From contig CBDCWR010000007.1 in assembly GCA_965223385.1 (NCBI GenBank), forward strand, positions 2,498,301 through 2,562,300: a DNA stretch of 64,000 nt, read 5' to 3'. The DNA is from Candidatus Multivoraceae bacterium. Its GTDB lineage: Bacteria > Acidobacteriota > Thermoanaerobaculia > Multivoradales > Multivoraceae. Positions 4,658-41,676 of this stretch are shown here, in pieces (within the stretch, counting starts at the first letter, position 1; each line of letters starts with the position of its first letter). A program made the translations under genes and the position numbers. Under the pieces are notes generated by a model. The model saw only the letters and a program-made list of their open reading frames with translations. It searched no databases and had not been told where the DNA came from.

Positions 4658-6112
4658 TCAGTCGTCGAAGCCGGGTGGCGGCTCGAAGCGGAACCCGGCC
4701 CGCTCGAGAAAACGGGCGGCCTCGATCGTGTCGAGGTCGGCGTACTCGGCGCCGACGATCTGCACGCCGATCGGCAGACCGTGGTCGTCGAGGCCGGTTG
4801 GCACGACGGTCGACGGCAGGTAGGACACGCCCGTCAGGCCAGCCCAGAAGACCTGCTCGAAGTAGGGTCGCTCTTCGCCGTCGACGCTCGTGGTGCGCTT
4901 GCCGAAGGCCGAGTGGTCGTGGGGGAAGGCCGAGGTTGCCATGACCGGGGTGACGATCACGTCCCACTGCTCGAAGAAGCGATGCCAGGCCCAGCGCAGA
5001 TGGGTGCGCGTCTCGTTGGCCTGGATCCAGCTCCTGTGGCGTGCCGTCTGGCTGCGGAAGACGAGCGCACGCTGGCTGGTGTCGCTCGGGTCGAGGGCCT
5101 CCGCCTTCGCGATGAGCACGTCGAAGTCGGCGTCAGGCATGCGGGCCGCCATCACCGGCTGCAGGAGCCGGTGATAGGTCTCGTGGGACTCCGCCGGGCT
5201 GAAGTCGGGCCGGGCCGTGTCCGAGACCTCGGCGCCGGCGTCGGCGAAGGCATCGCCGACCTTGCGCACGCGGGCCTGGGTCTCCTGGGAGACCGGTGCG
5301 ACGGCGTCACTGGGCCAGAGGGCCACCTTCCACTCGCAGATGGGCTTGGGTGTGCGCTTCAGCTCCAGTCGAAGGCCGCGGCTCTCGATCTCGTTCGGGC
5401 CCGCCATGGCGTGCACACCCAGCTCGAGGTCACCCGCCGAGCGGGCCATCGGTCCGATCACGCTGATGTCGGACGGCGTGAGAACACCTGGTGGTGCGTG
5501 CCCGCGCGGCGGCAGCAGGTTCCAGGTGGGTTTGTGCCCGAACACGCCGCAGTAGTGCGACGGGTTGCGGATCGAGCCACCGATGTCGGAGCCCGTCTCG
5601 AAGCCGGTCAGCCCCGCTGCCAGTGCCGCGGCGGAGCCGCCCGAGGAGCCGCCGGGGGTGCGCTCCGTGTCGTACGGGTTGTTGGTCGTGCCGTAGATGT
5701 CGTTGTAGCTCTGGAAGTCGGCGAGTCGCAGCGGCACGTTGGTCTTGCCGAAGATCACGACGCCCGCAGCGTTGACCCGGTCGATGGAGAGCGCATCCAG
5801 GTCGGGGACGTTGTCCGCGAGCTCGGGAATCCCGTGGGTGGAGGGGAGTCCGGCGACGTCGTAGCTGTCTTTCACGGTCATGGGCACGCCGTGAAGTGGC
5901 CCCCAGATCTCGCCCCTCGCGATGGCGGCGTCGGCCTCCCGGGCGCGGACGCGGGCGCGCTCCCGGTCGTCGACGACGATGGCGTTCACGGTGTCGTTGT
6001 AGCGATCGGTGCGCGCCAGGAAGTACTCGAGGAGCTCCTCGGCGGTTGCATCGCCGCGACGGATGGCTTCGGCGATCTGGGTGGCCGACTGAAAGGCCCA
6101 GGGGGTACTCAT
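4658..6112 (-). CDS. Amidase (amidase-signature family).
   Basis: GGSSGGSAAA signature, a conserved Ser-cisSer-Lys context and KTN motif; 484 aa. Confidence 0.9.
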   Translation of the reverse strand: MSTPWAFQSATQIAEAIRRGDATAEELLEYFLARTDRYNDTVNAIVVDDRERARVRAREADAAIARGEIWGPLHGVPMTVKDSYDVAGLPSTHGIPELADNVPDLDALSIDRVNAAGVVIFGKTNVPLRLADFQSYNDIYGTTNNPYDTERTPGGSSGGSAAALAAGLTGFETGSDIGGSIRNPSHYCGVFGHKPTWNLLPPRGHAPPGVLTPSDISVIGPMARSAGDLELGVHAMAGPNEIESRGLRLELKRTPKPICEWKVALWPSDAVAPVSQETQARVRKVGDAFADAGAEVSDTARPDFSPAESHETYHRLLQPVMAARMPDADFDVLIAKAEALDPSDTSQRALVFRSQTARHRSWIQANETRTHLRWAWHRFFEQWDVIVTPVMATSAFPHDHSAFGKRTTSVDGEERPYFEQVFWAGLTGVSYLPSTVVPTGLDDHGLPIGVQIVGAEYADLDTIEAARFLERAGFRFEPPPGFDD

Positions 6113-6206
6113 GGACGGTCCTCTCTCGAGCTGGTTGTGGACGGCCAGACTACCGCGCTCCGCAGGCCCGGGGGCCCGAAGAACGAATCGCGACCGAGGT
6201 GCGGCG

Positions 6207-6974
6207 CTAGCTCTGCAGGTAGCGGTTCGGCACGTTGCGCAGCTCGGGCCCCGCGCGCCCCGCGGCAGCGAGAAGGCGCAGCACGTTGCTCTTCGTGTCT
6301 TCTTCGCGACGGTGAAACTGCGGCAGCATTCCGAACTGGGTATACGAGATCGGCGTCAGGTCGAGCAGCGTGGTCTCCCAGTCCATGTCGTGGCCCCAGG
6401 TGACTCCCGCCACGCGAAACTGCGGGTCGGCTCCGGCCTCGAGCAGGAGCTCCATGACGGGGCGCGCATAGTTGGCGTTCGAGCTCACGGTGTGAAAGAG
6501 CGGCGTGTGCCCGTTCAGGCCGTGCGCGTCGGTGCCGGCTGGAGCGTCGACGTCGGCTCCGGCCGCGAGCAGCGTGCGGACGGAAGCCTCGCACACGAAC
6601 TCGGCCGCGACGTGCAGCAGCGTGGCGCCGTAGAGAGGCGTGAACGCGCAGCGCAGATCCACGCGGTGCTGGAGGAGGGTCGGCTCCTCTTCCAGGGCTC
6701 GAGCGAGCGCCGCCCCGTCGTCGAGCAGCACCAGCTCGAGGGCGCGATCGCCGTCGGAAACGCCCTGATCCAACAGCAAGCGGACGCAGTCGCCGAAGCG
6801 CGGCGACCGCGTGTACATCTCCGTCATCCAGGCGAACAGCGTGCGCCCGCGGCACACGTGGTCGGGCTTCATGCCGGCCTGGAAGACGGCTTCGAGCTCC
6901 CCGAGGTCGTGGGTCTCGAGGGCGTCGAGGTAGCGCTGGTCGAGCTGCTGCATGGTCGCGGTGTACCCGCCCAT
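6207..6974 (-). CDS. Ankyrin-repeat protein.
   Basis: Repeats of G.TLLH.AA......V..LL.AGAD. Confidence 0.7.
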   Translation of the reverse strand: MGGYTATMQQLDQRYLDALETHDLGELEAVFQAGMKPDHVCRGRTLFAWMTEMYTRSPRFGDCVRLLLDQGVSDGDRALELVLLDDGAALARALEEEPTLLQHRVDLRCAFTPLYGATLLHVAAEFVCEASVRTLLAAGADVDAPAGTDAHGLNGHTPLFHTVSSNANYARPVMELLLEAGADPQFRVAGVTWGHDMDWETTLLDLTPISYTQFGMLPQFHRREEDTKSNVLRLLAAAGRAGPELRNVPNRYLQS

Positions 6975-7099: not shown

Positions 7100-8747
7100 C
7101 TACTGGCTCTCGAGGGCCAGGATCCGCTCTTGCAGTGTCTGGATCAGATCCTCCTGGGCTTCGTTTGACTCGACTTGCGCATCGAGCAGCCGCTGCTGCT
7201 CCTGGACCACACGGGTCAGGAGCGCAACCACCTCGATGGCCGCCATGCCGCTGCGGTCGGGCGTCGCCACGATCTCGGGGACGTCCTCGGCGATGAAGCC
7301 GAGCTGCGGGTCGTCAGGTGCCACCTTGTAGTTGTAGTGAACGGGCTCGAGCGCTGCCAGCGCCTGGAGGGCTGTCTGCGCGGTGATGGGCCCGATGTTC
7401 TCCTTGAGTGCACGGCTGGACGCGTTGGTCCAGACGCCGGCGGCGGTGAGCCGAGCTCCGGACAGCTGCGCGTGGATGGGGTGGGCCGGGTTGAAACCGT
7501 TCGCGAAGATGCCATCCTGATCGACGGCCAGGTAACCCTGGTTGTCGATCGTGAGGCGCTCCACGTTGCCGGTCATGAAGTAGATCGCGGGGTTCGGCGC
7601 GACCGCTCCGGCGCCCGGGCGCACGTTGAAGAAGCCCGACCTCGCGCCGAACGAGGAGCCCGAGTAGCCGAAGTTCAGTGCGTCCGAAGCGCCGTTGGGG
7701 CCGACGGCGTTGAAGGTGTCGGCCGACTGCGCGCCGAAGATGTGGAGGTTGCCGACGGGGTTCGAGGTGCCGATGCCTACGGCACCGGTGTCAGCGAGCA
7801 CCAGCTGGTCGACGTTGCTCGCGCCGGAATCATCTTCGACGATGAGAGCGATTGTCGAAGTCGCCGTCCTTGACCTGGAACGAGTTGCTGTCGACCTCGA
7901 GCTCCCACCGAGGGCTACCGGTCTGCTCGAGGATCACCTCGGGCGCGTTGCTGTCCATGATGTGGAGCGAGCCTCCCGGCGTGGTCGTTCCCATGCCGTT
8001 GTAGATGCCGTTGCTGTTGACACCTTGCATGTGGAGGCGGACATAGGCGCCGGTCTGATCCTGAACCTGAAAGGCGTCGCCGTCGTTCTCGAGGAAGATG
8101 CCGGTACCCGAGGTGTTCCGGAGGCTCAACAGCGTCCGGTTGTCGGCCTCGTTGTCGTCGATGCGGATGAAGTCGTCCGTGGCGTAAGACGCCATGGCCA
8201 CGTGGTGGAGTCCTCCGTTCTCGGCCTCCCCGTGCTGGCTCGCGGCGCGCTGATCGGCTGCGTCGACCTCTGCCTGGATGAGCTCTCTGCGGTTGGCAGC
8301 GAGCCTCTGCTGCATCTGGTCGCGCGACACGGCGCTTCCGGCCACGCTGAAGAACAGGCCTCGGTCGGTCGCGAGGGCTTCGCCGGAGCTCTTCAGGTGC
8401 ACGAGCTCCCAGCTGTAGCGACCGTCGGGAAGGCTCTCCAACGCGATCCCTTGTCGCCTTTCGGACGCCCCCCCTGCTCCGCGTTCGAGGAATCGGGCTC
8501 CATCGCCGAGGAGGTCGACGTTGATGCTCTCAGTGACGGCAAACGTCCGCTCCAGCCGGTACCCGTTCGGGCCGGAGATCTTGAGGACCGCCCTCTCGCC
8601 GCGGGCGTCGGCTTGAACCGTGAACGTCGTCGCCGCGAGATGTGCCGTCGCGGACTGGCGCTTCTCGGCCTCTGCGCTGAACGCCGTGCCCGAGAGTAGA
8701 AGTGCCATGAGGACACTCAGCAAGCACTGGATCTTGGATACCTTCAA
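7100..8747 (-). CDS. Secreted tail-fiber-domain protein with a C-terminal peptidase S74 intramolecular-chaperone domain. It is split by an apparent frameshift near 7802-7860 (ORFs 7830..8747 and 7100..7801).
   Basis: Signal peptide MKVSKIQCLLSVLMALLLSGTAFSAEA. The upstream ORF ends ..SFQVKDGDFDNR, and the next frame continues ..ADTGAVGIGTSNPVGNLHIF, which is the tail-fiber GNVGIGTt.P motif. The C-terminus (KENIGPITAQTALQALAALEPVHYNYK...GFIAEDVPEIV...EVVALLTRVVQEQQRLLDAQ) matches the S74 chaperone domain. Confidence 0.6.
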
Positions 8748-12475: not shown

Positions 12476-13531
12476 TCAGACGAGGGAGTCCGCAGCCGTT
12501 GTCACCCGCGAGCTCCCCAGCAGCGGGCCACACAGGGCATAGTCCCGCACGGCGACGACGCGGCTCTCCGAGGCATCGGCTTCGGCCGAATTCTTCGCGA
12601 CGTGAACGCGGATCGCCCAGGCCGGTGTCTCGCCGCCCAGGTCCTCGGGCCGCCCCGAGCGGAAGCAGAGGAGGACCGGCTCGCCCTCGACCCAGCCTGG
12701 TTCCAGGCGGAACGAGCCCTCGAGGAGGCCGTAGTTGACGACGTAGCGGTCGAGCAGGACCTCGCGCGTGCCGTCTTCGAGCACCCCGACCACGTCGAGC
12801 TTGAGATCGTCGGCGAGAAGCTCGGCCAGCGCGGGCCAGTCGCGGGCGTTGAACCGGTTGCAGTACTCCTGCAGCAGCTCGAGCGTTTCACGGTCTCCGG
12901 CGTGGGTCCGCGGGAAGCCGGCGGGGTGCGCCTTGCGGAGAGCTTCGAGCTTCGCGCGACCCCGATGGAGCGCGGCCTTCACCGCGCCACGCGTACAGCC
13001 GACGCTGGCCGCCACCTCGTCGAGCGAGAGGTCGAGGACGTCCTTGAGCACCACGCACGAGCGCTCGCGCGGCGGCAGCTCGGTGACGAGGTGCTCGAGA
13101 GCGCGAGTGGCCTGTTGACGGTGGTCGAGGACGTCCTCGGCCCGGCGGGTGCACGGCTCCGCCGCCTCGTCTTCGAGACCATCGCTGTTGGCCGTGAAGC
13201 GCTGGCGCCGCAGGCCGTCGATGCATCGGTTGTGTGCGATGCGGTAGAGGAGTGGTGCGAGGGGGCGGCTGGAGTCGAGAGTGTCGAGACGGAAGAAGGC
13301 GGCCGCGAGCGTGTCCTGCACGACGTCTTCGCCATCGAGAGGGGAGCCCATCATGCGGGTGCAGTAGCGATGGAGTGCGCCTCGCAGCGGCTCCACCTCG
13401 GCGAGAAAGCGCGCCTGGGCGCTGGCTGGATCGCGAAAAGGGGGCGCGTCACGCACGCCGCTCGCGCGCGGGGCGAGATCGTCGGCCTGGTCTCCCCGTC
13501 CAGGGGCGCGAGAAGAGGGTTCTGGGGTCAT
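12476..13531 (-). CDS. ECF (sigma-70 family) RNA polymerase sigma factor with a ~150-aa C-terminal NTF2/SnoaL-like extension.
   Basis: Sigma region 2 (LHRYCTRMMGS..DGEDVVQDTL) and region 4 (LPPRERSCVVLKDVLDLSLDEVAASVGCTRGAVKAALHRGRAKL). GGAGG RBS. Confidence 0.75.
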   Translation of the reverse strand: MTPEPSSRAPGRGDQADDLAPRASGVRDAPPFRDPASAQARFLAEVEPLRGALHRYCTRMMGSPLDGEDVVQDTLAAAFFRLDTLDSSRPLAPLLYRIAHNRCIDGLRRQRFTANSDGLEDEAAEPCTRRAEDVLDHRQQATRALEHLVTELPPRERSCVVLKDVLDLSLDEVAASVGCTRGAVKAALHRGRAKLEALRKAHPAGFPRTHAGDRETLELLQEYCNRFNARDWPALAELLADDLKLDVVGVLEDGTREVLLDRYVVNYGLLEGSFRLEPGWVEGEPVLLCFRSGRPEDLGGETPAWAIRVHVAKNSAEADASESRVVAVRDYALCGPLLGSSRVTTAADSLV

Positions 13532-13815
13532 GAGGCCTCCGGGATCTTGATGGATGTGCCGGGCGCGATCGCACTCCGCCTGGTGCGGGAGCGCCTTTTG
13601 TTCTACGAACGAGAGGCCACGGAAGATACGCCGCGCGAGGTTGCGGTCCGGACTGGGGTGAATGGTGCCGGTCGCGGGACGGGTGAACGACTCCTTCGCG
13701 CGGCCTGACGCGTGTCACACCCGAACCTCGGGCGCGCGTGCGTCGATCGGGAGCCGGCGCGCATTCGGCGGGTCGGGACCCGGTGTCGCAGCGGCCGCAG
13801 ATCAGGAGACACGGA

Positions 13816-33390: not shown

Positions 33391-34026
33391 ATGACGGAAG
33401 AGATTGGCCTGTTCGACGCCCTGTTCCACTGCCGGGCGATGCGCAAGATCAAGCCGGACGCAGTACCGGAGGAGATGCTGGTGCGCCTGATCGAAGCCGG
33501 CAACCAGGCCCCGAGCGGGTCGAACCTGCAGGGAGCCCGCTGGATCGTGGTGCGCGACCCGGACGTGAAGGCGGAGCTCGCCCGCCTCAACAAGATCGGG
33601 GTCGAGGAGTACATCGGGCCGATGGACGGCCAGGGTGCGTCGTTGCCCCACCAGAATGCCGACAAGCGTCAGCGCATGATCAACGCCGTGCTCTGGCAGG
33701 CGGAGCACATGCACGAGATCCCCGCGCTCGTCATCGCATGCATGAAGTTCGGGCGCGAGGTGACGGAGCTCGAGCGCGCGCAGGCGGGCGGCTCGATCTG
33801 GCCGGGCATCCAGAACGTGCTGCTCGCGGCTCGAGGGCTCGGCCTCGGCGCCGCGCCGACCACGCTGGGGCTGCGCGACCGCGCCGCGGTGAAGGAGGCG
33901 CTCGCCCTGCCGGACGACATGGAGGCGATCTGCCTCATTCCGGTCGGCTGGCCCATGGGCAACTTCGGTCCGGTCACCCGGCTGCCGGTCGAGCAGACCA
34001 TGCGCTGGGATCGCTGGTCGGCGTAG
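33391..34026 (+). CDS. Nitroreductase-family protein.
   Basis: RBS AGGAGA. Nitroreductase-fold motifs are present (R.IKPD..P.E.L..LIEAG..APSGSN.Q..R...V). Confidence 0.8.
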   Translation: MTEEIGLFDALFHCRAMRKIKPDAVPEEMLVRLIEAGNQAPSGSNLQGARWIVVRDPDVKAELARLNKIGVEEYIGPMDGQGASLPHQNADKRQRMINAVLWQAEHMHEIPALVIACMKFGREVTELERAQAGGSIWPGIQNVLLAARGLGLGAAPTTLGLRDRAAVKEALALPDDMEAICLIPVGWPMGNFGPVTRLPVEQTMRWDRWSA

Positions 34027-34056
34027 CTGACTTCCGTGGTGGTACCACGGGTCAGC
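34026..34056 (+). terminator. Candidate terminator hairpin overlapping the nitroreductase stop codon.
   Basis: Imperfect 13-bp stem GCTGAC(TT)CCGTGGT-GG-TACCACGGGTCAGC. No clear U-tract. Confidence 0.35.
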
Positions 34057-34151
34057 TACCGATGTTGATGCTCCTGCCGCTGACGCGGCATGCGCGCTCC
34101 AAGCTCGCTGCGCTCGCGTCGCTTGCCGCGGCCCCTATTTGAGGAGGAGAC

Positions 34152-34376
34152 GTGTCGGCGAAGTCGATCGGGTTGGTGCTCATTGCCGGTGGCGGAGTTC
34201 TCGTGCTCGTCGGCATCGCGACCTACCTGGGCTGGCTGTCCTGGTTCGGGCGGCTGCCGGGCGACGTCCGGATCGAGGGTGAGCGCACCCGGGTCTACTT
34301 CCCGGTGGTCACCATGCTCGTGATCTCCGTGGTCGCGACCCTGCTCCTGAACCTGCTGCTCCGGCTCTTCAAGTGA
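34152..34376 (+). CDS. DUF2905-family small membrane protein.
   Basis: GTG start with RBS GAGGAGGAG. 74 aa with a central GRLPGDVRIE motif between two TM helices. Confidence 0.6.
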   Translation: MSAKSIGLVLIAGGGVLVLVGIATYLGWLSWFGRLPGDVRIEGERTRVYFPVVTMLVISVVATLLLNLLLRLFK

Positions 34377-34394
34377 GGCCGCGCGCGGAGTCGA

Positions 34395-34799
34395 TCAGGA
34401 TCTGCGTGCTCCGTTGGGCGGCCACGCGACGAGGACAGCCAGCAGCGCGAGCGCGATGACGAGGCCGAGGAACTCGCGCGTCTCCTCGATGTAGGGCTTG
34501 TCGGGGCTCATGGTCCCGGTGATCGACTCGAAGTCGTGCTCGAACATCCAGTCGAAGAAGCCCGGTGCGACCGAGAGTGCAAGTGCACCCAGGAGTGCGA
34601 CGTTGAGCCAGGTGAGCACGCGGTGGGAGTGGCCACACGCCGCGAGGGTGAACACCCCGGCCGTGAGCGCGTAGACCGCGACCCAGAGCGCCGGGTCGGG
34701 GTCGTTCAGCTGCAGCCACGCGAAGGCCGCCATGGCGAGCGCAAACGCCGCGAAGGTGGCGCGCTGTGCCGGCGAGGTCGAGCGATCGGACGCGGACAT
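34395..34799 (-). CDS. Hypothetical membrane protein (4 TM helices).
   Basis: Hydrophobic segments. No known motif. Confidence 0.45.
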   Translation of the reverse strand: MSASDRSTSPAQRATFAAFALAMAAFAWLQLNDPDPALWVAVYALTAGVFTLAACGHSHRVLTWLNVALLGALALSVAPGFFDWMFEHDFESITGTMSPDKPYIEETREFLGLVIALALLAVLVAWPPNGARRS

Positions 34800-38544: not shown

Positions 38545-38853
38545 GATGTGTCGTGTCCGGCGCGTGTTGGATCGCGCATGGGCCGATCCTGCGGGGCAGG
38601 CCCGCCCGCCGGACGTCGGGGGCGGTCGCCGAACGGCGTTTTGCAAGTCTACGCATCAAAGACGCGATTTGCTAGTTTTTTTGGATTTACGTCGCCGCTC
38701 TGCGGCACACGTCGCGGTTGGATGTGCAAATCGCTGCACGTCGCGGGAGATCTCGGCGATCGAGCCCCCTCGCTCGCCTCCGCTTGCTGTTGCTATGGTT
38801 ACGGCCTTCTTGGAATGCGCCGCGCGGCGCACGACAACCTCTGGAACACGGTC

Positions 38854-39960
38854 ATGAACGTTGCATTCGTCGGTTGGCGCGGGATGGTTGGATCCGTCCT
38901 GCGTGAGCGCCTCGCGGAATCGGGCGAGAGCGGCTTCGAGTGGACGTACTTCTCCACATCGGCTGCAGGAGGCGAGGGCCCGGACGGCCAGCCTCTCCGT
39001 GACGCCCTCGACGTGTCTCTCCTCGAGACGCACGACGTCGTGCTGACGTGCCAGGGTGGCGGCTACACCTCGGAGGTCCACCCGCAGCTCAGGGATCGCG
39101 GCTGGGACGGCTTCTGGATCGACGCGGCGTCGACGCTCCGCATGCGCGAGGACGCGATCATCGTTCTCGATCCCGTCAACGGCCAGCGCATGGAGGCGGC
39201 CATCGAGCGCGGTGTGCGCGACCTCATCGGCGGCAACTGCACCGTGTCGCTCATGCTCATGGCCGCGGCTCCGCTGTTCGAGCAGGGCTGGGTGGAGTGG
39301 CTGAGCTCGATGACCTACCAGGCCGCGTCCGGCGCCGGGGCGGCGGCGGTTCGTGAGCTCGCGGCGCAGACCCGCTTCCTCGGCGAGCGCACCTCCGACG
39401 TTCTCGACGATCCGGCGCGCGCGATCGCCGAGCTCGACCGCGCCGCGCTGAACGCGCAGCGCAGCCCAGACTTCCCGACCGCCGACATCGGCTACCCCCT
39501 TGCGGGGAGCCTGTTGCCGTGGATCGACCGCGACGTCGGTGGCGGTCAGTCCCGCGAGGAGTGGAAGGGTGGGGTCGAGTCGAACAAGATCCTCGGCCTC
39601 GATCCGCCGGTCCCCGTGGATGGCATCTGTGTGCGCGTGGGCTCGATGCGCTGTCACGCGCAGGCGCTGCAGTTCAAGCTGACCGAAGGCGTGCCGCTCG
39701 ATGAGATCGAAGAGGTGCTCTCCGAGGCGCATCCCTGGTGCGAGGTGGTTCCGAACACCCCCGAGGAGTCGCTCGCGCGCCTCACGCCAGCCGCGGTCAC
39801 CGGGTCGCTCCAGGTACCGATCGGCCGCCTGCGCAAGCCGGCGATGGGCGACGACTACCTGTCGGCGTTCACGGTCGGCGACCAGCTGCTCTGGGGAGCG
39901 GCAGAGCCGCTGCTGCGTGCTCTCGTGATGGTGCGCGAGATGTCGGCGGTGACGGCCTAG
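38854..39960 (+). CDS. asd: Aspartate-semialdehyde dehydrogenase.
   Basis: NVAFVGWRGMVG Rossmann N-terminus. Catalytic ..GGNCTVSLMLMA.. Cys motif. 368 aa. Confidence 0.85.
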   Translation: MNVAFVGWRGMVGSVLRERLAESGESGFEWTYFSTSAAGGEGPDGQPLRDALDVSLLETHDVVLTCQGGGYTSEVHPQLRDRGWDGFWIDAASTLRMREDAIIVLDPVNGQRMEAAIERGVRDLIGGNCTVSLMLMAAAPLFEQGWVEWLSSMTYQAASGAGAAAVRELAAQTRFLGERTSDVLDDPARAIAELDRAALNAQRSPDFPTADIGYPLAGSLLPWIDRDVGGGQSREEWKGGVESNKILGLDPPVPVDGICVRVGSMRCHAQALQFKLTEGVPLDEIEEVLSEAHPWCEVVPNTPEESLARLTPAAVTGSLQVPIGRLRKPAMGDDYLSAFTVGDQLLWGAAEPLLRALVMVREMSAVTA

Positions 39961-40237
39961 GGGCCTGATGAAAAAGTCTCGCAGGCCTGGCGCAAGGAGT
40001 TTCGGTTCGTGGCAAGGCGTTTCTCCGCAAGCGATGCCACTGCCCATCGTTGAGGAGAAAGAACGCAGTCCACGGGCCGAAAATCCTTGCGCCCCAAGGG
40101 GTTGTGGCCGGCGCGGACGCATCTGCTACGTTCTTTTCTCTCCACGATGGCACCGCATCGAGTTCGAGAAAACGCCTTGCATCTACGCCCGCGGCGACCA
40201 CAACCAGGCCCGCGAGACTTTTCCATCAGGCCCCTAG
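39957..40237. repeat. 281-bp imperfect palindromic element (MITE-like or a long structured hairpin) between convergent asd and SSF genes.
   Basis: Terminal arms CTAGGGGCCTGATGAAAAAGTCTCGC / GCGAGACTTTTCCATCAGGCCCCTAG. The arms are about 80% self-complementary over roughly 2 x 120 nt. Mirror-image 89-aa ORFs on both strands are an artefact of it. Both flanking stop codons lie in the terminal CTAG. Confidence 0.8.
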
Positions 40238-41676
40238 ACCGGGTCGCGCCGGCGCTCGAGCCACGACACCCCGACGCAGAGCGCGACGTTCAGCACGAGC
40301 CCCAACAGGCCCGTGTGGATGCCGTAGACCTTGCCGTAGCCCAGGAGCTTGGTGCCCGCGGCGACGCTCGTGCCGGCGGCCAGACCAATCAGCGCCCCGC
40401 GCGCGGTCAGCCCGCGCCAGCCGACCCCGAGGAAGAAGAGGGGGGACACCTGGCAGAGCAGCTCGTTCTTCAGCTCCGCGAGACCCCAGAGCGTGAGCCG
40501 CGGGACGAGGGCCACGGCGACCAGGGCGGCCATGATCGCCCACGACAGCGTCTTGCCCCACCGGGTGAGCTTCGCCTCGTCGGCGTCCTTCAGGAGGCCA
40601 CGCCCCAGCACGTCCTTGGTCAGGATCGACGACAGACTGAGAAGCACCGAGTCGGCGGTCGACATGATCGCGGCCATCGCGCCCAGGAGAACGAGCGACG
40701 CCGAGATCGCAAACAGCGGCGAGCCCTGCGTCCACTCCCGCAGCAGCATCGGCATGACCTGGTCGGCACCAATCTCCCCGAGCTCCCCGTCGTAGCGCCG
40801 CACGCCGTACAGGCCGACCAGGACCACGACGGGCATGGTCACGAGCGGCATGAAGGCCATGATGCCGAGGGAGCGGCGCAGTACCCGTGCGCTGCGTGCG
40901 GCGTAGATCCTCTGGATGGCCTGGGGATACACGGCGGCCGCGAAGCCGACGGTCAGGATGTTGCTCATCCACGTGCGCAGGAGATCGGGCTCGGGCCGCT
41001 GCACGAGCTCCGGCCGGTTCTCGGTCAACCATTCGGTGAGTCCGAACAGCCCACCCGAGCTGGTGAGCACCGCAGCCAGGATTCCGGCGAGGCCGATGAG
41101 CAGCAGCACACCTTGCAGTGCGTCGGTCCAGGCCACGGCCCGCAGACCACCGAGTGTCTCGTAGAGCACGATCACCACCGCGAACAGGAGGACGCCCGCG
41201 GCGTAGGGGATGGCGCCGTCGCTGATGCCTTCGGTGAGGTGGCCGATCGCCATGAGCTGCGCGAGCAGGTAGTTCGTGATGGCCACGATCAGGAGCAGGT
41301 TGGCGCAGTGGGTGAGGAGCGGGCTGCCCCAGCGGTGGTCGAACCAGTCGGCCGGCGTGACGAAGGCGTGCTCGGAGGCGGCCTGTTTGAGCCCCGGCGC
41401 GAACGTCAGGTACACGACCACCACGGCCATCATGAAGCTGGCCGACATGATCCACGCGAACCCCATGCGGTAGGCCTCGCCGGGGTAGCCGATGAGCGAG
41501 TTGCCGCTGTATTGCGTGGCGTACAGCGTGAGCACGAGCACCGGCACGCCGAGGCCGCGGCCGGCGAGGTAGAAGTCGGAGAGCGAGCCGGCCGTGCTGG
41601 CACGCCGCGAGAGGAACGCGATCAGGGCCAGCGCGCCAGCGTAGATCGCGAGGAGAGCGATCGCTCCCGGGCTCAT
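40234..41676 (-). CDS. Sodium:solute symporter family (SSF) transporter.
   Basis: About 13 TM helices. SSF-like motifs are present (GR.LG.......YA..YSG.SL.G.PG). Confidence 0.8.
   Translation of the reverse strand: MSPGAIALLAIYAGALALIAFLSRRASTAGSLSDFYLAGRGLGVPVLVLTLYATQYSGNSLIGYPGEAYRMGFAWIMSASFMMAVVVVYLTFAPGLKQAASEHAFVTPADWFDHRWGSPLLTHCANLLLIVAITNYLLAQLMAIGHLTEGISDGAIPYAAGVLLFAVVIVLYETLGGLRAVAWTDALQGVLLLIGLAGILAAVLTSSGGLFGLTEWLTENRPELVQRPEPDLLRTWMSNILTVGFAAAVYPQAIQRIYAARSARVLRRSLGIMAFMPLVTMPVVVLVGLYGVRRYDGELGEIGADQVMPMLLREWTQGSPLFAISASLVLLGAMAAIMSTADSVLLSLSSILTKDVLGRGLLKDADEAKLTRWGKTLSWAIMAALVAVALVPRLTLWGLAELKNELLCQVSPLFFLGVGWRGLTARGALIGLAAGTSVAAGTKLLGYGKVYGIHTGLLGLVLNVALCVGVSWLERRRDPV

Follow-up and report, generated by a model that had tools for sequence, protein, structure and literature searches.

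A probable non-autonomous foldback element of the MITE type between convergent asd and symporter genes in an Acidobacteriota genome

The locus and its features

The DNA in this report is a stretch of 64,000 nucleotides from a Candidatus Multivoraceae bacterium of the phylum Acidobacteriota (contig CBDCWR010000007.1 of assembly GCA_965223385.1, positions 2,498,301 to 2,562,300), referred to below as the window. Its feature of interest is a 281-bp element at window positions 39957-40237, which fits exactly between the stop codon of asd and the stop codon of a convergent sodium:solute symporter gene. An earlier reading, made from the letters of the window and called here the sequence-only reading, had described a 281-bp imperfect palindrome between these two convergent genes with both stop codons inside its terminal CTAG tetranucleotides, and both the sequence and the Pfam assignments agree with that description. 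The genes and the parts of the element are as follows.

38854-39960, + strand: asd (aspartate-semialdehyde dehydrogenase), the left neighbor, with stop codon TAG at 39958-39960; Pfam PF01118 and PF02774
39957-39960, strandless: left CTAG, in which TA (39958-39959) is the candidate target duplication and also forms part of the asd stop codon
39957-39988 with 40206-40237: stem P1, with 30 pairs in the minimum-energy fold
39960-39990, strandless: left terminal inverted repeat GGGGCCTGATGAAAAAGTCTCGCAGGCCTGG, the 5' strand of stem P1, in inverted repeat I1; homologous to the arm GGGGCTTGAGGAAGAACTCGCG of the related contigs L043 and L005
39989-40093: hairpin P2, with 41 pairs (z = -7.9), which varies more across the family than P3; its tip, CGATGCCACTGCCCATCG, is at 40032-40049
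40094-40099: junction linker CCAAGG, unpaired, at the center of the global palindrome
40100-40205: hairpin P3, with 34 pairs (z = -6.8), the part best conserved across the family; its tip, CGATGGCACCGCATCG, is at 40145-40160
40204-40234, strandless: right terminal inverted repeat CCAGGCCCGCGAGACTTTTCCATCAGGCCCC, the 3' strand of stem P1
40234-40237, strandless: right CTAG, in which TA (40235-40236) is the candidate target duplication and CTA (40234-40236) is the symporter stop codon on the - strand
40234-41676, - strand: sodium:solute symporter (SSF), the right neighbor; Pfam PF00474, with a full-length C terminus

The window Asd has the Semialdhyde_dh and Semialdhyde_dhC domains, matches protein P0001 at 100% and falls in a cluster of one, and the symporter is 82-83% identical to those of the related contigs L003 and L043. 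Both proteins end within a few residues of the ends of their homologs. The G+C content of the element is 60.5%, compared to 68.7% for the window.

The element is the strongest inverted repeat of the entire window. Its terminal arms (I1) extend over 38 nt and are 92% complementary, and the terminal inverted repeats proper, of ~31 nt, have the form 5'-GGGGCCTGATGAAAAAG...CCCC-3'. The sequence-only reading had given arms of 23 nt with 21 of 23 positions complementary; the inverted repeat is real but stronger than that, the strings quoted being 26 nt long with 25 of 26 positions complementary. Folding as RNA gave -166.9 kcal/mol for the + strand (z = -12.8) and -186.1 kcal/mol for the - strand (z = -15.9), and folding as DNA gave z = -12.6. 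No shuffled sequence did as well in any of these comparisons. The minimum-energy fold is Y-shaped, with a 30-bp terminal stem and two hairpins of ~105 nt each, and at -166.9 kcal/mol it is favored over a single rod-like hairpin at -153.2 kcal/mol. The self-complementary interior that had been reported is therefore only partly as described: the match quoted for it is real (I5, 80%), but the interior forms the branches of a Y rather than one long palindrome, and the repeats run in the order A B C D B' | E D' C' E' A'. P2 and P3 have similar distal halves that share the tip motif CGATG-N6-8-CATCG, and their lower stems are unrelated in sequence. This hairpin tip and the arm sequence GGGGCYTGAKGAA are the two conserved cores of the family.

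Related copies in other genomes

Across genomes, copies of the element were found at three different sites. A covariance model of the hairpin gave a 37-bit match just after a GGDEF gene in L005, a contig of an Acidobacteriota metagenome-assembled genome (MAG) whose Asd is 71% identical to that of the window. The element there starts TTAG|GGGCTTGAGGAAGAACTCGCG, compared to CTAG|GGGCCTGATGAAAAAGTCTCGC in the window, its 17-nt hairpin tip TCGATGCGGTGCCATCG is identical to the P3 tip of the window copy, and the contig ends inside the element. L043, a contig of a sister MAG, spans a copy of 488 bp (5732-6219) with 34-nt arms (94%), which folds at -286.9 kcal/mol (z = -14.1) on the same plan of a stem plus two hairpins. 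The L043 copy lies exactly between the stop codon of the GGDEF gene (the TAG in TTAG) and that of the same symporter (the CTA in CTAG), and the arms of the copies in the L043/L005 clade are homologous to those of the window copy. L005 and a further contig of this clade, L045, carry a short form of ~299 bp; the full short form that we used in comparisons is a composite of L045 and the right end of L043.

The third site is at a locus unrelated to these. Used in an exhaustive protein search, the - strand open reading frame (ORF) of the element matched P0122, a spurious ORF of 182 aa on the ENA metagenome contig L009, with a library-wide E value of 3.5e-4. The DNA at L009 8443-8574 aligns to the element at ~70% identity, with a local score of 54 compared to 28.7 +/- 2.6 for shuffles (maximum, 37), and a MAFFT alignment of the window and L009 copies has 219 ungapped columns. 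The L009 copy runs from CTAG to CTAG over 275 bp (8443-8717), the similarity beginning exactly at the terminal CTAG, and it occupies a divergent intergenic region, flanked by genes for an amino-acid kinase and an OmpA-like protein, that is not syntenic with the window. This copy is decayed and has mostly lost its fold (z = -1.2). The intergenic region around it also seems degenerate: to its left, 8190-8433 (- strand) holds what appears to be an N-terminal part of a zinc-ribbon protein (CRRCDAEL..FCAACGQ), which continues into the kinase gene in a different frame.

Two weaker matches to the hairpin model were noted. L009 16691-16790 scored 23.5 bits (E of about 0.003-0.006); it is mostly intergenic, beside a Peptidase_M48 gene, runs ~24 nt into the 3' end of that gene, and may represent either another, diverged hairpin of the family or chance similarity. 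Within the window, model R1 gave 30.3 bits (E = 2e-4) at 13030-13142, a 113-nt inverted repeat (I3, with 23-nt arms, 87%) inside the gene at 12476-13714 (- strand), a coding sequence that is probably palindromic by chance.

The long and short forms differ in a symmetric way. A two-hairpin module of ~97 nt is present in both main hairpins of the L043 copy (5806-5905 and 6049-6150) in mirror arrangement, the two modules being only ~76% complementary to each other. It is absent from hairpin 1 of L005 and L045 and from hairpin 2 of L045 (L005 ends earlier); GGA and GCA stand in its place in L005/L045, and the remainder is ~99% identical. Exchange with another genomic copy is one possibility for this double insertion or deletion.

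The symmetric gain or loss of the module, together with the T- or Y-like plan of a stem plus two hairpins and the strength of the DNA fold (z = -12.6), would also be in keeping with a site that acts at the level of DNA, either a cruciform used in recombination or replication or what is left of the terminal palindrome of a single-stranded or hairpin-ended replicon that had integrated. We regard such a site as highly improbable, because the element is isolated between housekeeping genes with no replication or recombinase gene nearby and has no similarity to any plasmid or phage record: BLAST searches of plasmids and phages with the copies from the window, L009 and L043 and with a 33-nt arm returned nothing or chance matches.

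Of five short-read contigs in the L043 clade, four terminate at the element or within it (L005 at 7412, L044 at 7318, L045 at 6005 and L046 at 2518), so that the element coincides with contig ends in short-read assemblies. This behavior fits either a multi-copy repeat or the breaking of an assembly graph on a long palindrome. Assemblers can create palindromes as well as break them, and with related contigs ending here the element might be thought an artifact, such as a foldback chimera. We give that almost no credence, since the palindrome is imperfect and has distinct internal hairpins, both flanking genes are intact, and homologous elements occur in five independent assemblies.

Filled and empty sites

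The contig L003, whose Asd is 73% identical to that of the window and 76% to that of L043, does not have the element, and there is a 57-nt overlap between its GGDEF and symporter genes. When the left and right flanks of the L043 copy are joined, they align colinearly with L003 across the junction, and the two loci thus form a filled-versus-empty pair: L003 reads ...GACATTCGCCAGTAG|GCCGTAGAG... and L043 reads ...GACGTTGAGAGTTAG, the element, CTAG and then CCATAGAG.... The site at this GGDEF/SSF junction is filled in L043, L005 and L045 and empty in L003.

The insertion point in L043 is the TAG stop codon of the GGDEF gene. The L043 symporter ends GLYG*, and those of L003 and the window continue to LLANVAVCVLVSRLAKRQ and LVLNVALCVGVSWLERRRDPV, respectively, about 18-22 residues further on; the element has therefore shortened the symporter by ~18 codons and provided it with a new stop codon. 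Relative to the symporter, the window copy lies 66 bp further out than the L043 copy, and it abuts asd because a GGDEF gene is absent from this place in the window genome. Asd identities make the window the outgroup to L003, L004 and L043. The simplest reading of these sequences is that the window and L043 copies would represent two separate insertions of one family and the L009 copy a third.

The gene order around asd also varies. In the relatives L003, L004, L005 and L043, CoA-transferase and HMGL-like genes lie upstream of asd and a GGDEF gene lies directly downstream. The window has no CoA-transferase or HMGL-like genes upstream of asd (38647-38853), where a histidine kinase gene abuts asd instead, and the element (39960-40234) sits where the relatives have the GGDEF gene; loss of that gene here and its gain in the relatives are both possible. 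We considered whether the element could be a remnant of the missing GGDEF gene and rejected this, as tblastn gave no match and the 64 kb contain no GGDEF homolog.

The positions of the copies bear directly on the proposal that the element was never mobile and instead evolved in the host and was inherited vertically at the symporter gene's 3' end, with a role in bidirectional termination, insulation or 3'-end stabilization of the two convergent transcripts. An element does lie beside the same symporter, between convergent genes, in two distant lineages; both strands fold very strongly and the stems covary; and the window copy has an A5...T4/T5 pair flanking a GC-rich inner stem and one weak terminator-like site (39996-39978, - strand). 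Even so, we find a host structure of this kind unlikely. The two junctions are offset from each other by those 66 bp, the L043 insertion truncates the symporter, the L003 flanks are contiguous without any element, and a related copy occupies the unrelated divergent intergenic region of L009. The T-tract is not conserved, the L043 arm reading GTTCTTCC, and lengths of 281-488 bp are far above those required of a terminator. The window's other convergent pairs have no hairpin spacer. A canonical intrinsic terminator, consisting of a short GC-rich hairpin with a 3-8 nt loop and a U-tract for each strand, was not found in the element; a terminator scan returned two weak sites inside it, compared to 0.6 +/- 0.8 expected.

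The related copies in other genomes, the filled-versus-empty comparison and the decayed L009 copy all support the insertion like that of a MITE (miniature inverted-repeat transposable element) that the sequence-only reading had listed among its explanations. The two others on its list, a long structured RNA and a bidirectional terminator, may be secondary roles. We conclude that the element is probably a non-autonomous, non-coding, MITE-type foldback element belonging to an undescribed family of Acidobacteriota-like genomes. Among the attributes of a MITE, it has terminal repeats, a small non-coding body (273-281 bp), a flanking duplication, and presence or absence at an orthologous site. Because both of its strands fold strongly, the insert may possibly also stop or stabilize both convergent transcripts.

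Several results weigh against this conclusion. No further copy was detected within the window by blastn, by Smith-Waterman comparison against shuffles or by the covariance model. The exact 19-base arm pattern GGCCTGATGNNAAAGTCTCGC had two chance matches in GTDB representative genomes, none in IMG/VR and two chance matches, within coding sequence, in JGI metagenomes; this pattern is too specific to the window copy, and the scan did not return the window itself and is therefore silent on copy number in the source genome. No transposase gene and no full-length insertion sequence (IS) with matching ends was present in the loci examined. The homology of the L009 copy is significant but modest, with only the first ~130 nt clearly alignable, and at the junction there is a 1-nt difference between the reconstructed empty site of L043 and L003. 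That one convergent junction should have been hit twice independently would be a coincidence, requiring either many copies per genome or a strong target preference. Finally, the covarying internal stems described below are unneeded in a simple cut-and-paste MITE and hint at an additional structural constraint. Apart from these results, further patterns searched in IMG/VR gave only chance or coding matches without extended similarity, and a literature search with the arm sequence retrieved only unrelated primers.

Conservation of pairing between copies

Pairing was compared between copies using the structure taken from the window sequence and sets of two or three sequences only. In the window and L009 pair, with the fold of the window - strand, 79.3% of the cells pair, compared to 36-41% with slid partners, and 13 pairs have changed on both sides, compared to 2-6 in the slid controls. 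Within P3, 19 pairs are the same in these two copies, 5 have one altered side and still pair, 7 still pair with both sides altered, and 9 are broken. No pair altered on both sides was lost, and each of the nine broken pairs differs on one side only. With the composite short form added as a third sequence, 76.4% of cells pair (36-42% when slid) and 27 pairs have changed on both sides (5-15 in controls), with P1 and P3 the best kept. Compensatory changes in P3 are seen in both the L009 and the L043/L045 copies. The numbers of G.U pairs on the two strands are 7 and 4, and with no strand bias of this kind the data do not point to an RNA made from one strand. The constraint on pairing could come from mobility and act on the DNA, it could act on the RNAs of both strands, or it could reflect exchange between copies.

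The same covariation would be expected of a structured non-coding RNA (ncRNA) gene family with a Y-shaped three-way junction and P3 as its functional core, the palindromy of the DNA being a by-product. The 27 changes on both sides, the retention of pairing in 7 of 7 such changes in P3, and the conservation of the CGATG...CATCG tips in all hairpins are what such a family would show. We nevertheless judge it quite improbable: a search of Rfam 15 gave no match to the element at E <= 1 (and no gathering-score match anywhere in the window), no sigma-70-like promoter was found, both strands fold equally well without a preference in G.U pairs, the terminal inverted repeats abut the TA duplication, the L009 fold is mostly lost, and the positions are patchy among relatives. 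A hammerhead-like CUGAUGA in one arm was also considered and set aside, as it has no Rfam match and neither the other arm nor the other copies conserve the motif.

A further reading is that the Y fold itself is selected, either because the element would propagate through a hairpin or single-stranded intermediate and not by plain cut-and-paste, or because a MITE would have been adopted by the host as a two-way transcription insulator that supplies both convergent genes with stop codons. This reading, which we consider rather unlikely, is based on the P1 and P3 pairing kept in three copies and on the occurrence of the ~97-nt module in both hairpins or neither. Covarying hairpins make it testable whether the palindrome is kept up for mobility or for the host.

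Coding potential

Two ORFs of 89 aa span the element in mirror image.

39968-40237, + strand: spurious 89-aa ORF, with no Pfam match and no homologs
39957-40226, - strand: mirror ORF, with no Pfam match

The sequence-only reading had called this pair spurious, which is borne out by the lack of Pfam matches and by a G+C content at third codon positions (GC3) of ~0.6 (0.58-0.61 for the two ORFs), compared to 0.80-0.93 in the real genes of the window. Differences between the window and L009 copies are distributed 19/19/28 over the codon positions, which shows no codon-position bias. On the GC3 and codon-position evidence, we rejected the 89-aa ORF as a real small protein; a protein search with the + strand ORF and a profile search with three sequences gave no matches. 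P0121, a protein of 469 aa with six tandem 79-aa units, matched the element ORF with an E value of 2e-10 and was rejected as a repeat-inflated false positive, its score coming from five identical units that each match 12 of 35 residues; it is probably a translated tandem DNA repeat.

Spurious ORFs of the element have been called as genes in relatives, at 182 aa in L009 and at 64 and 71 aa in L005 and L045; the 89-aa pair was apparently not called in the source annotation. The element end TAGGGGCYTGA (window 39957-39971; L043 5732-5746) places stop codons in two of three frames within 11 nt on both strands, and translation entering the element in those two frames would therefore be halted quickly. 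The third frame yields the long spurious ORFs.

Target site and stop codons

All three copies are flanked by YTAG, with CTAG on both sides in the window and L009 and with TTAG (left) and CTAG (right) in L043. The flanks fit a TA duplication around an element with ends GGGGC...GCCCC, and a 3-bp TAG fits equally. Given the TTAG/CTAG of L043, the duplication would be TA or TAG inside YTAG and not necessarily four bases; the earlier suggestion that CTAG is a duplicated target site holds to the extent that TA or TAG within YTAG fits, but a clean 4-bp duplication is unsupported in L043. CTAG is its own reverse complement, and the window copy alone cannot tell duplication from an extension of the repeat.

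CTAG is depleted ~10-fold in the window, with 19 occurrences where base composition predicts 184, and stop codons of GC3-supported genes account for 8 of them. Among 41 window ORFs, 24 end in TGA, 15 in TAG and 2 in TAA. With CTAG depleted and largely on TAG stop codons, an element that seeks YTAG would be funneled to gene ends, where it can sit between convergent genes, or within their tails, with little damage.

Insertion might proceed as follows. A transposase supplied in trans would recognize both arms and insert the element at the TA of YTAG, so that TA (or TAG) becomes duplicated; a TA duplication would imply an IS630/Tc1-mariner-like enzyme, and one of 3-4 bp an IS5-family-like enzyme. 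The flanking TA and the terminal G of the element would together make TAG on both strands, and with TAG rebuilt in this way both convergent genes would keep or acquire a stop codon; the TGA in the second frame behind it, as in TAGGGGCYTGA of the window and L043, would close another frame. The pre-insertion site of the window would have read GCC-TA-GAC (GCCTAGACC), the stop codons of asd and the symporter overlapping on one CTAG. Such a shared site is plausible given the short spacing of convergent pairs and the presence of CTAG on stop codons. We infer this account of stop-codon targeting from sequence comparison.

Elsewhere in the window, the genes of convergent pairs are mostly separated by 2-17 bp, with one gap of 83 bp and one pair overlapping by 23 bp.

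881/965, 4641/4658, 12458/12476, 14511/14528, 22452/22463, 45740/45743, 55067/55045: other convergent pairs in the window

No hairpin spacer was found at any other convergent pair in the window, and canonical intrinsic terminators seem rare at its convergent junctions. The sole other long convergent gap (34026-34395) holds a DUF2905 gene at 34152-34376 (Pfam E = 6.6e-19), which ORF lists with a 90-aa floor would miss.

Comparison with known systems

The element is like the MITEs derived from IS630/Tc1-mariner elements in being small and non-coding, in having terminal inverted repeats, and in that a TA duplication inside YTAG fits all three copies. According to an entry in the reference list of PMC2170065 (Tenzen and Ohtsubo 1991), IS630 prefers the TA of 5'-CTAG-3'. 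The likeness is one of target site, size and terminal repeats, and the element is unlike these MITEs in its Y-shaped palindrome with covarying hairpins and in that no IS630-family transposase or full-length element with its ends was found.

MITEPsy1 of Pseudomonas syringae, which is derived from the IS5 family, is 100 nt long with 18-nt repeats and inserts at, and duplicates, CTAG or YTAA (PMC3189936). When the end of our element is taken after CTAG, GGGCCTGATGAAAAAGTC, it agrees in register with the MITEPsy1 end GGAAGGTCTGAAAAAGCC at 11 of 18 positions, a post hoc comparison that depends on the end drawn; the match to the end of Escherichia coli IS5, at 8 of 16, is weak and likewise depends on where the end is drawn. 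The target choice of our element is also compatible with YTAR targeting of the IS5 type. Unlike MITEPsy1, the TTAG/CTAG of L043 does not fit a clean 4-bp duplication, and the window contains no IS5 or IS5-like transposase.

Small repeats such as SPRITE and REP are enriched between convergent genes (PMC3184786). SPRITE (~105 nt) and REP (20-40 nt) are far smaller than the 281-488 bp seen here and resemble simple terminators, whereas the element is multi-branched, has long terminal repeats and, unlike them, has no canonical U-tract. REP/REPIN sequences are hairpins of 20-40 nt with a GTAG/CGTC tag, and IS200/IS605-type elements have subterminal hairpins with neither terminal inverted repeats nor a target duplication. 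Both were excluded as candidates by the ~31-nt terminal inverted repeats, the TA/YTAG duplication and the length of 281 bp; no Y1 transposase was found among the neighbor genes scanned.

ERIC and Correia elements are imperfect palindromes over their whole length and are co-transcribed with their neighbors, and Correia elements carry a TA duplication. Our element differs from them in having no sequence relationship, in its host phylum, in being 2-4 times larger, and in its two-hairpin Y with long and short forms. The element sequence GGGGCCTGATG resembles the Tn3 end, GGGGTCTGACG. In its size of about 260-290 bp and in long terminal repeats that start with GGGG, it is also like the Tn3-derived inverted-repeat miniature elements (TIMEs; PMC4133298). 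A TIME would need a 5-bp duplication outside GGGG... repeats of ~38 bp, and the candidate was rejected because the sequences outside the GGGG ends, GCCTA and TAGAC, are not a repeat.

The family adds a mobile element to a mostly uncultured Acidobacteriota-like phylum, in which a literature search found no comparable element described. We see it as a neat instance of an element type already known, not as a new kind of biology; what sets it apart from the systems above is a modular, covarying Y-shaped palindrome and a symmetric difference of one module between its long and short forms.

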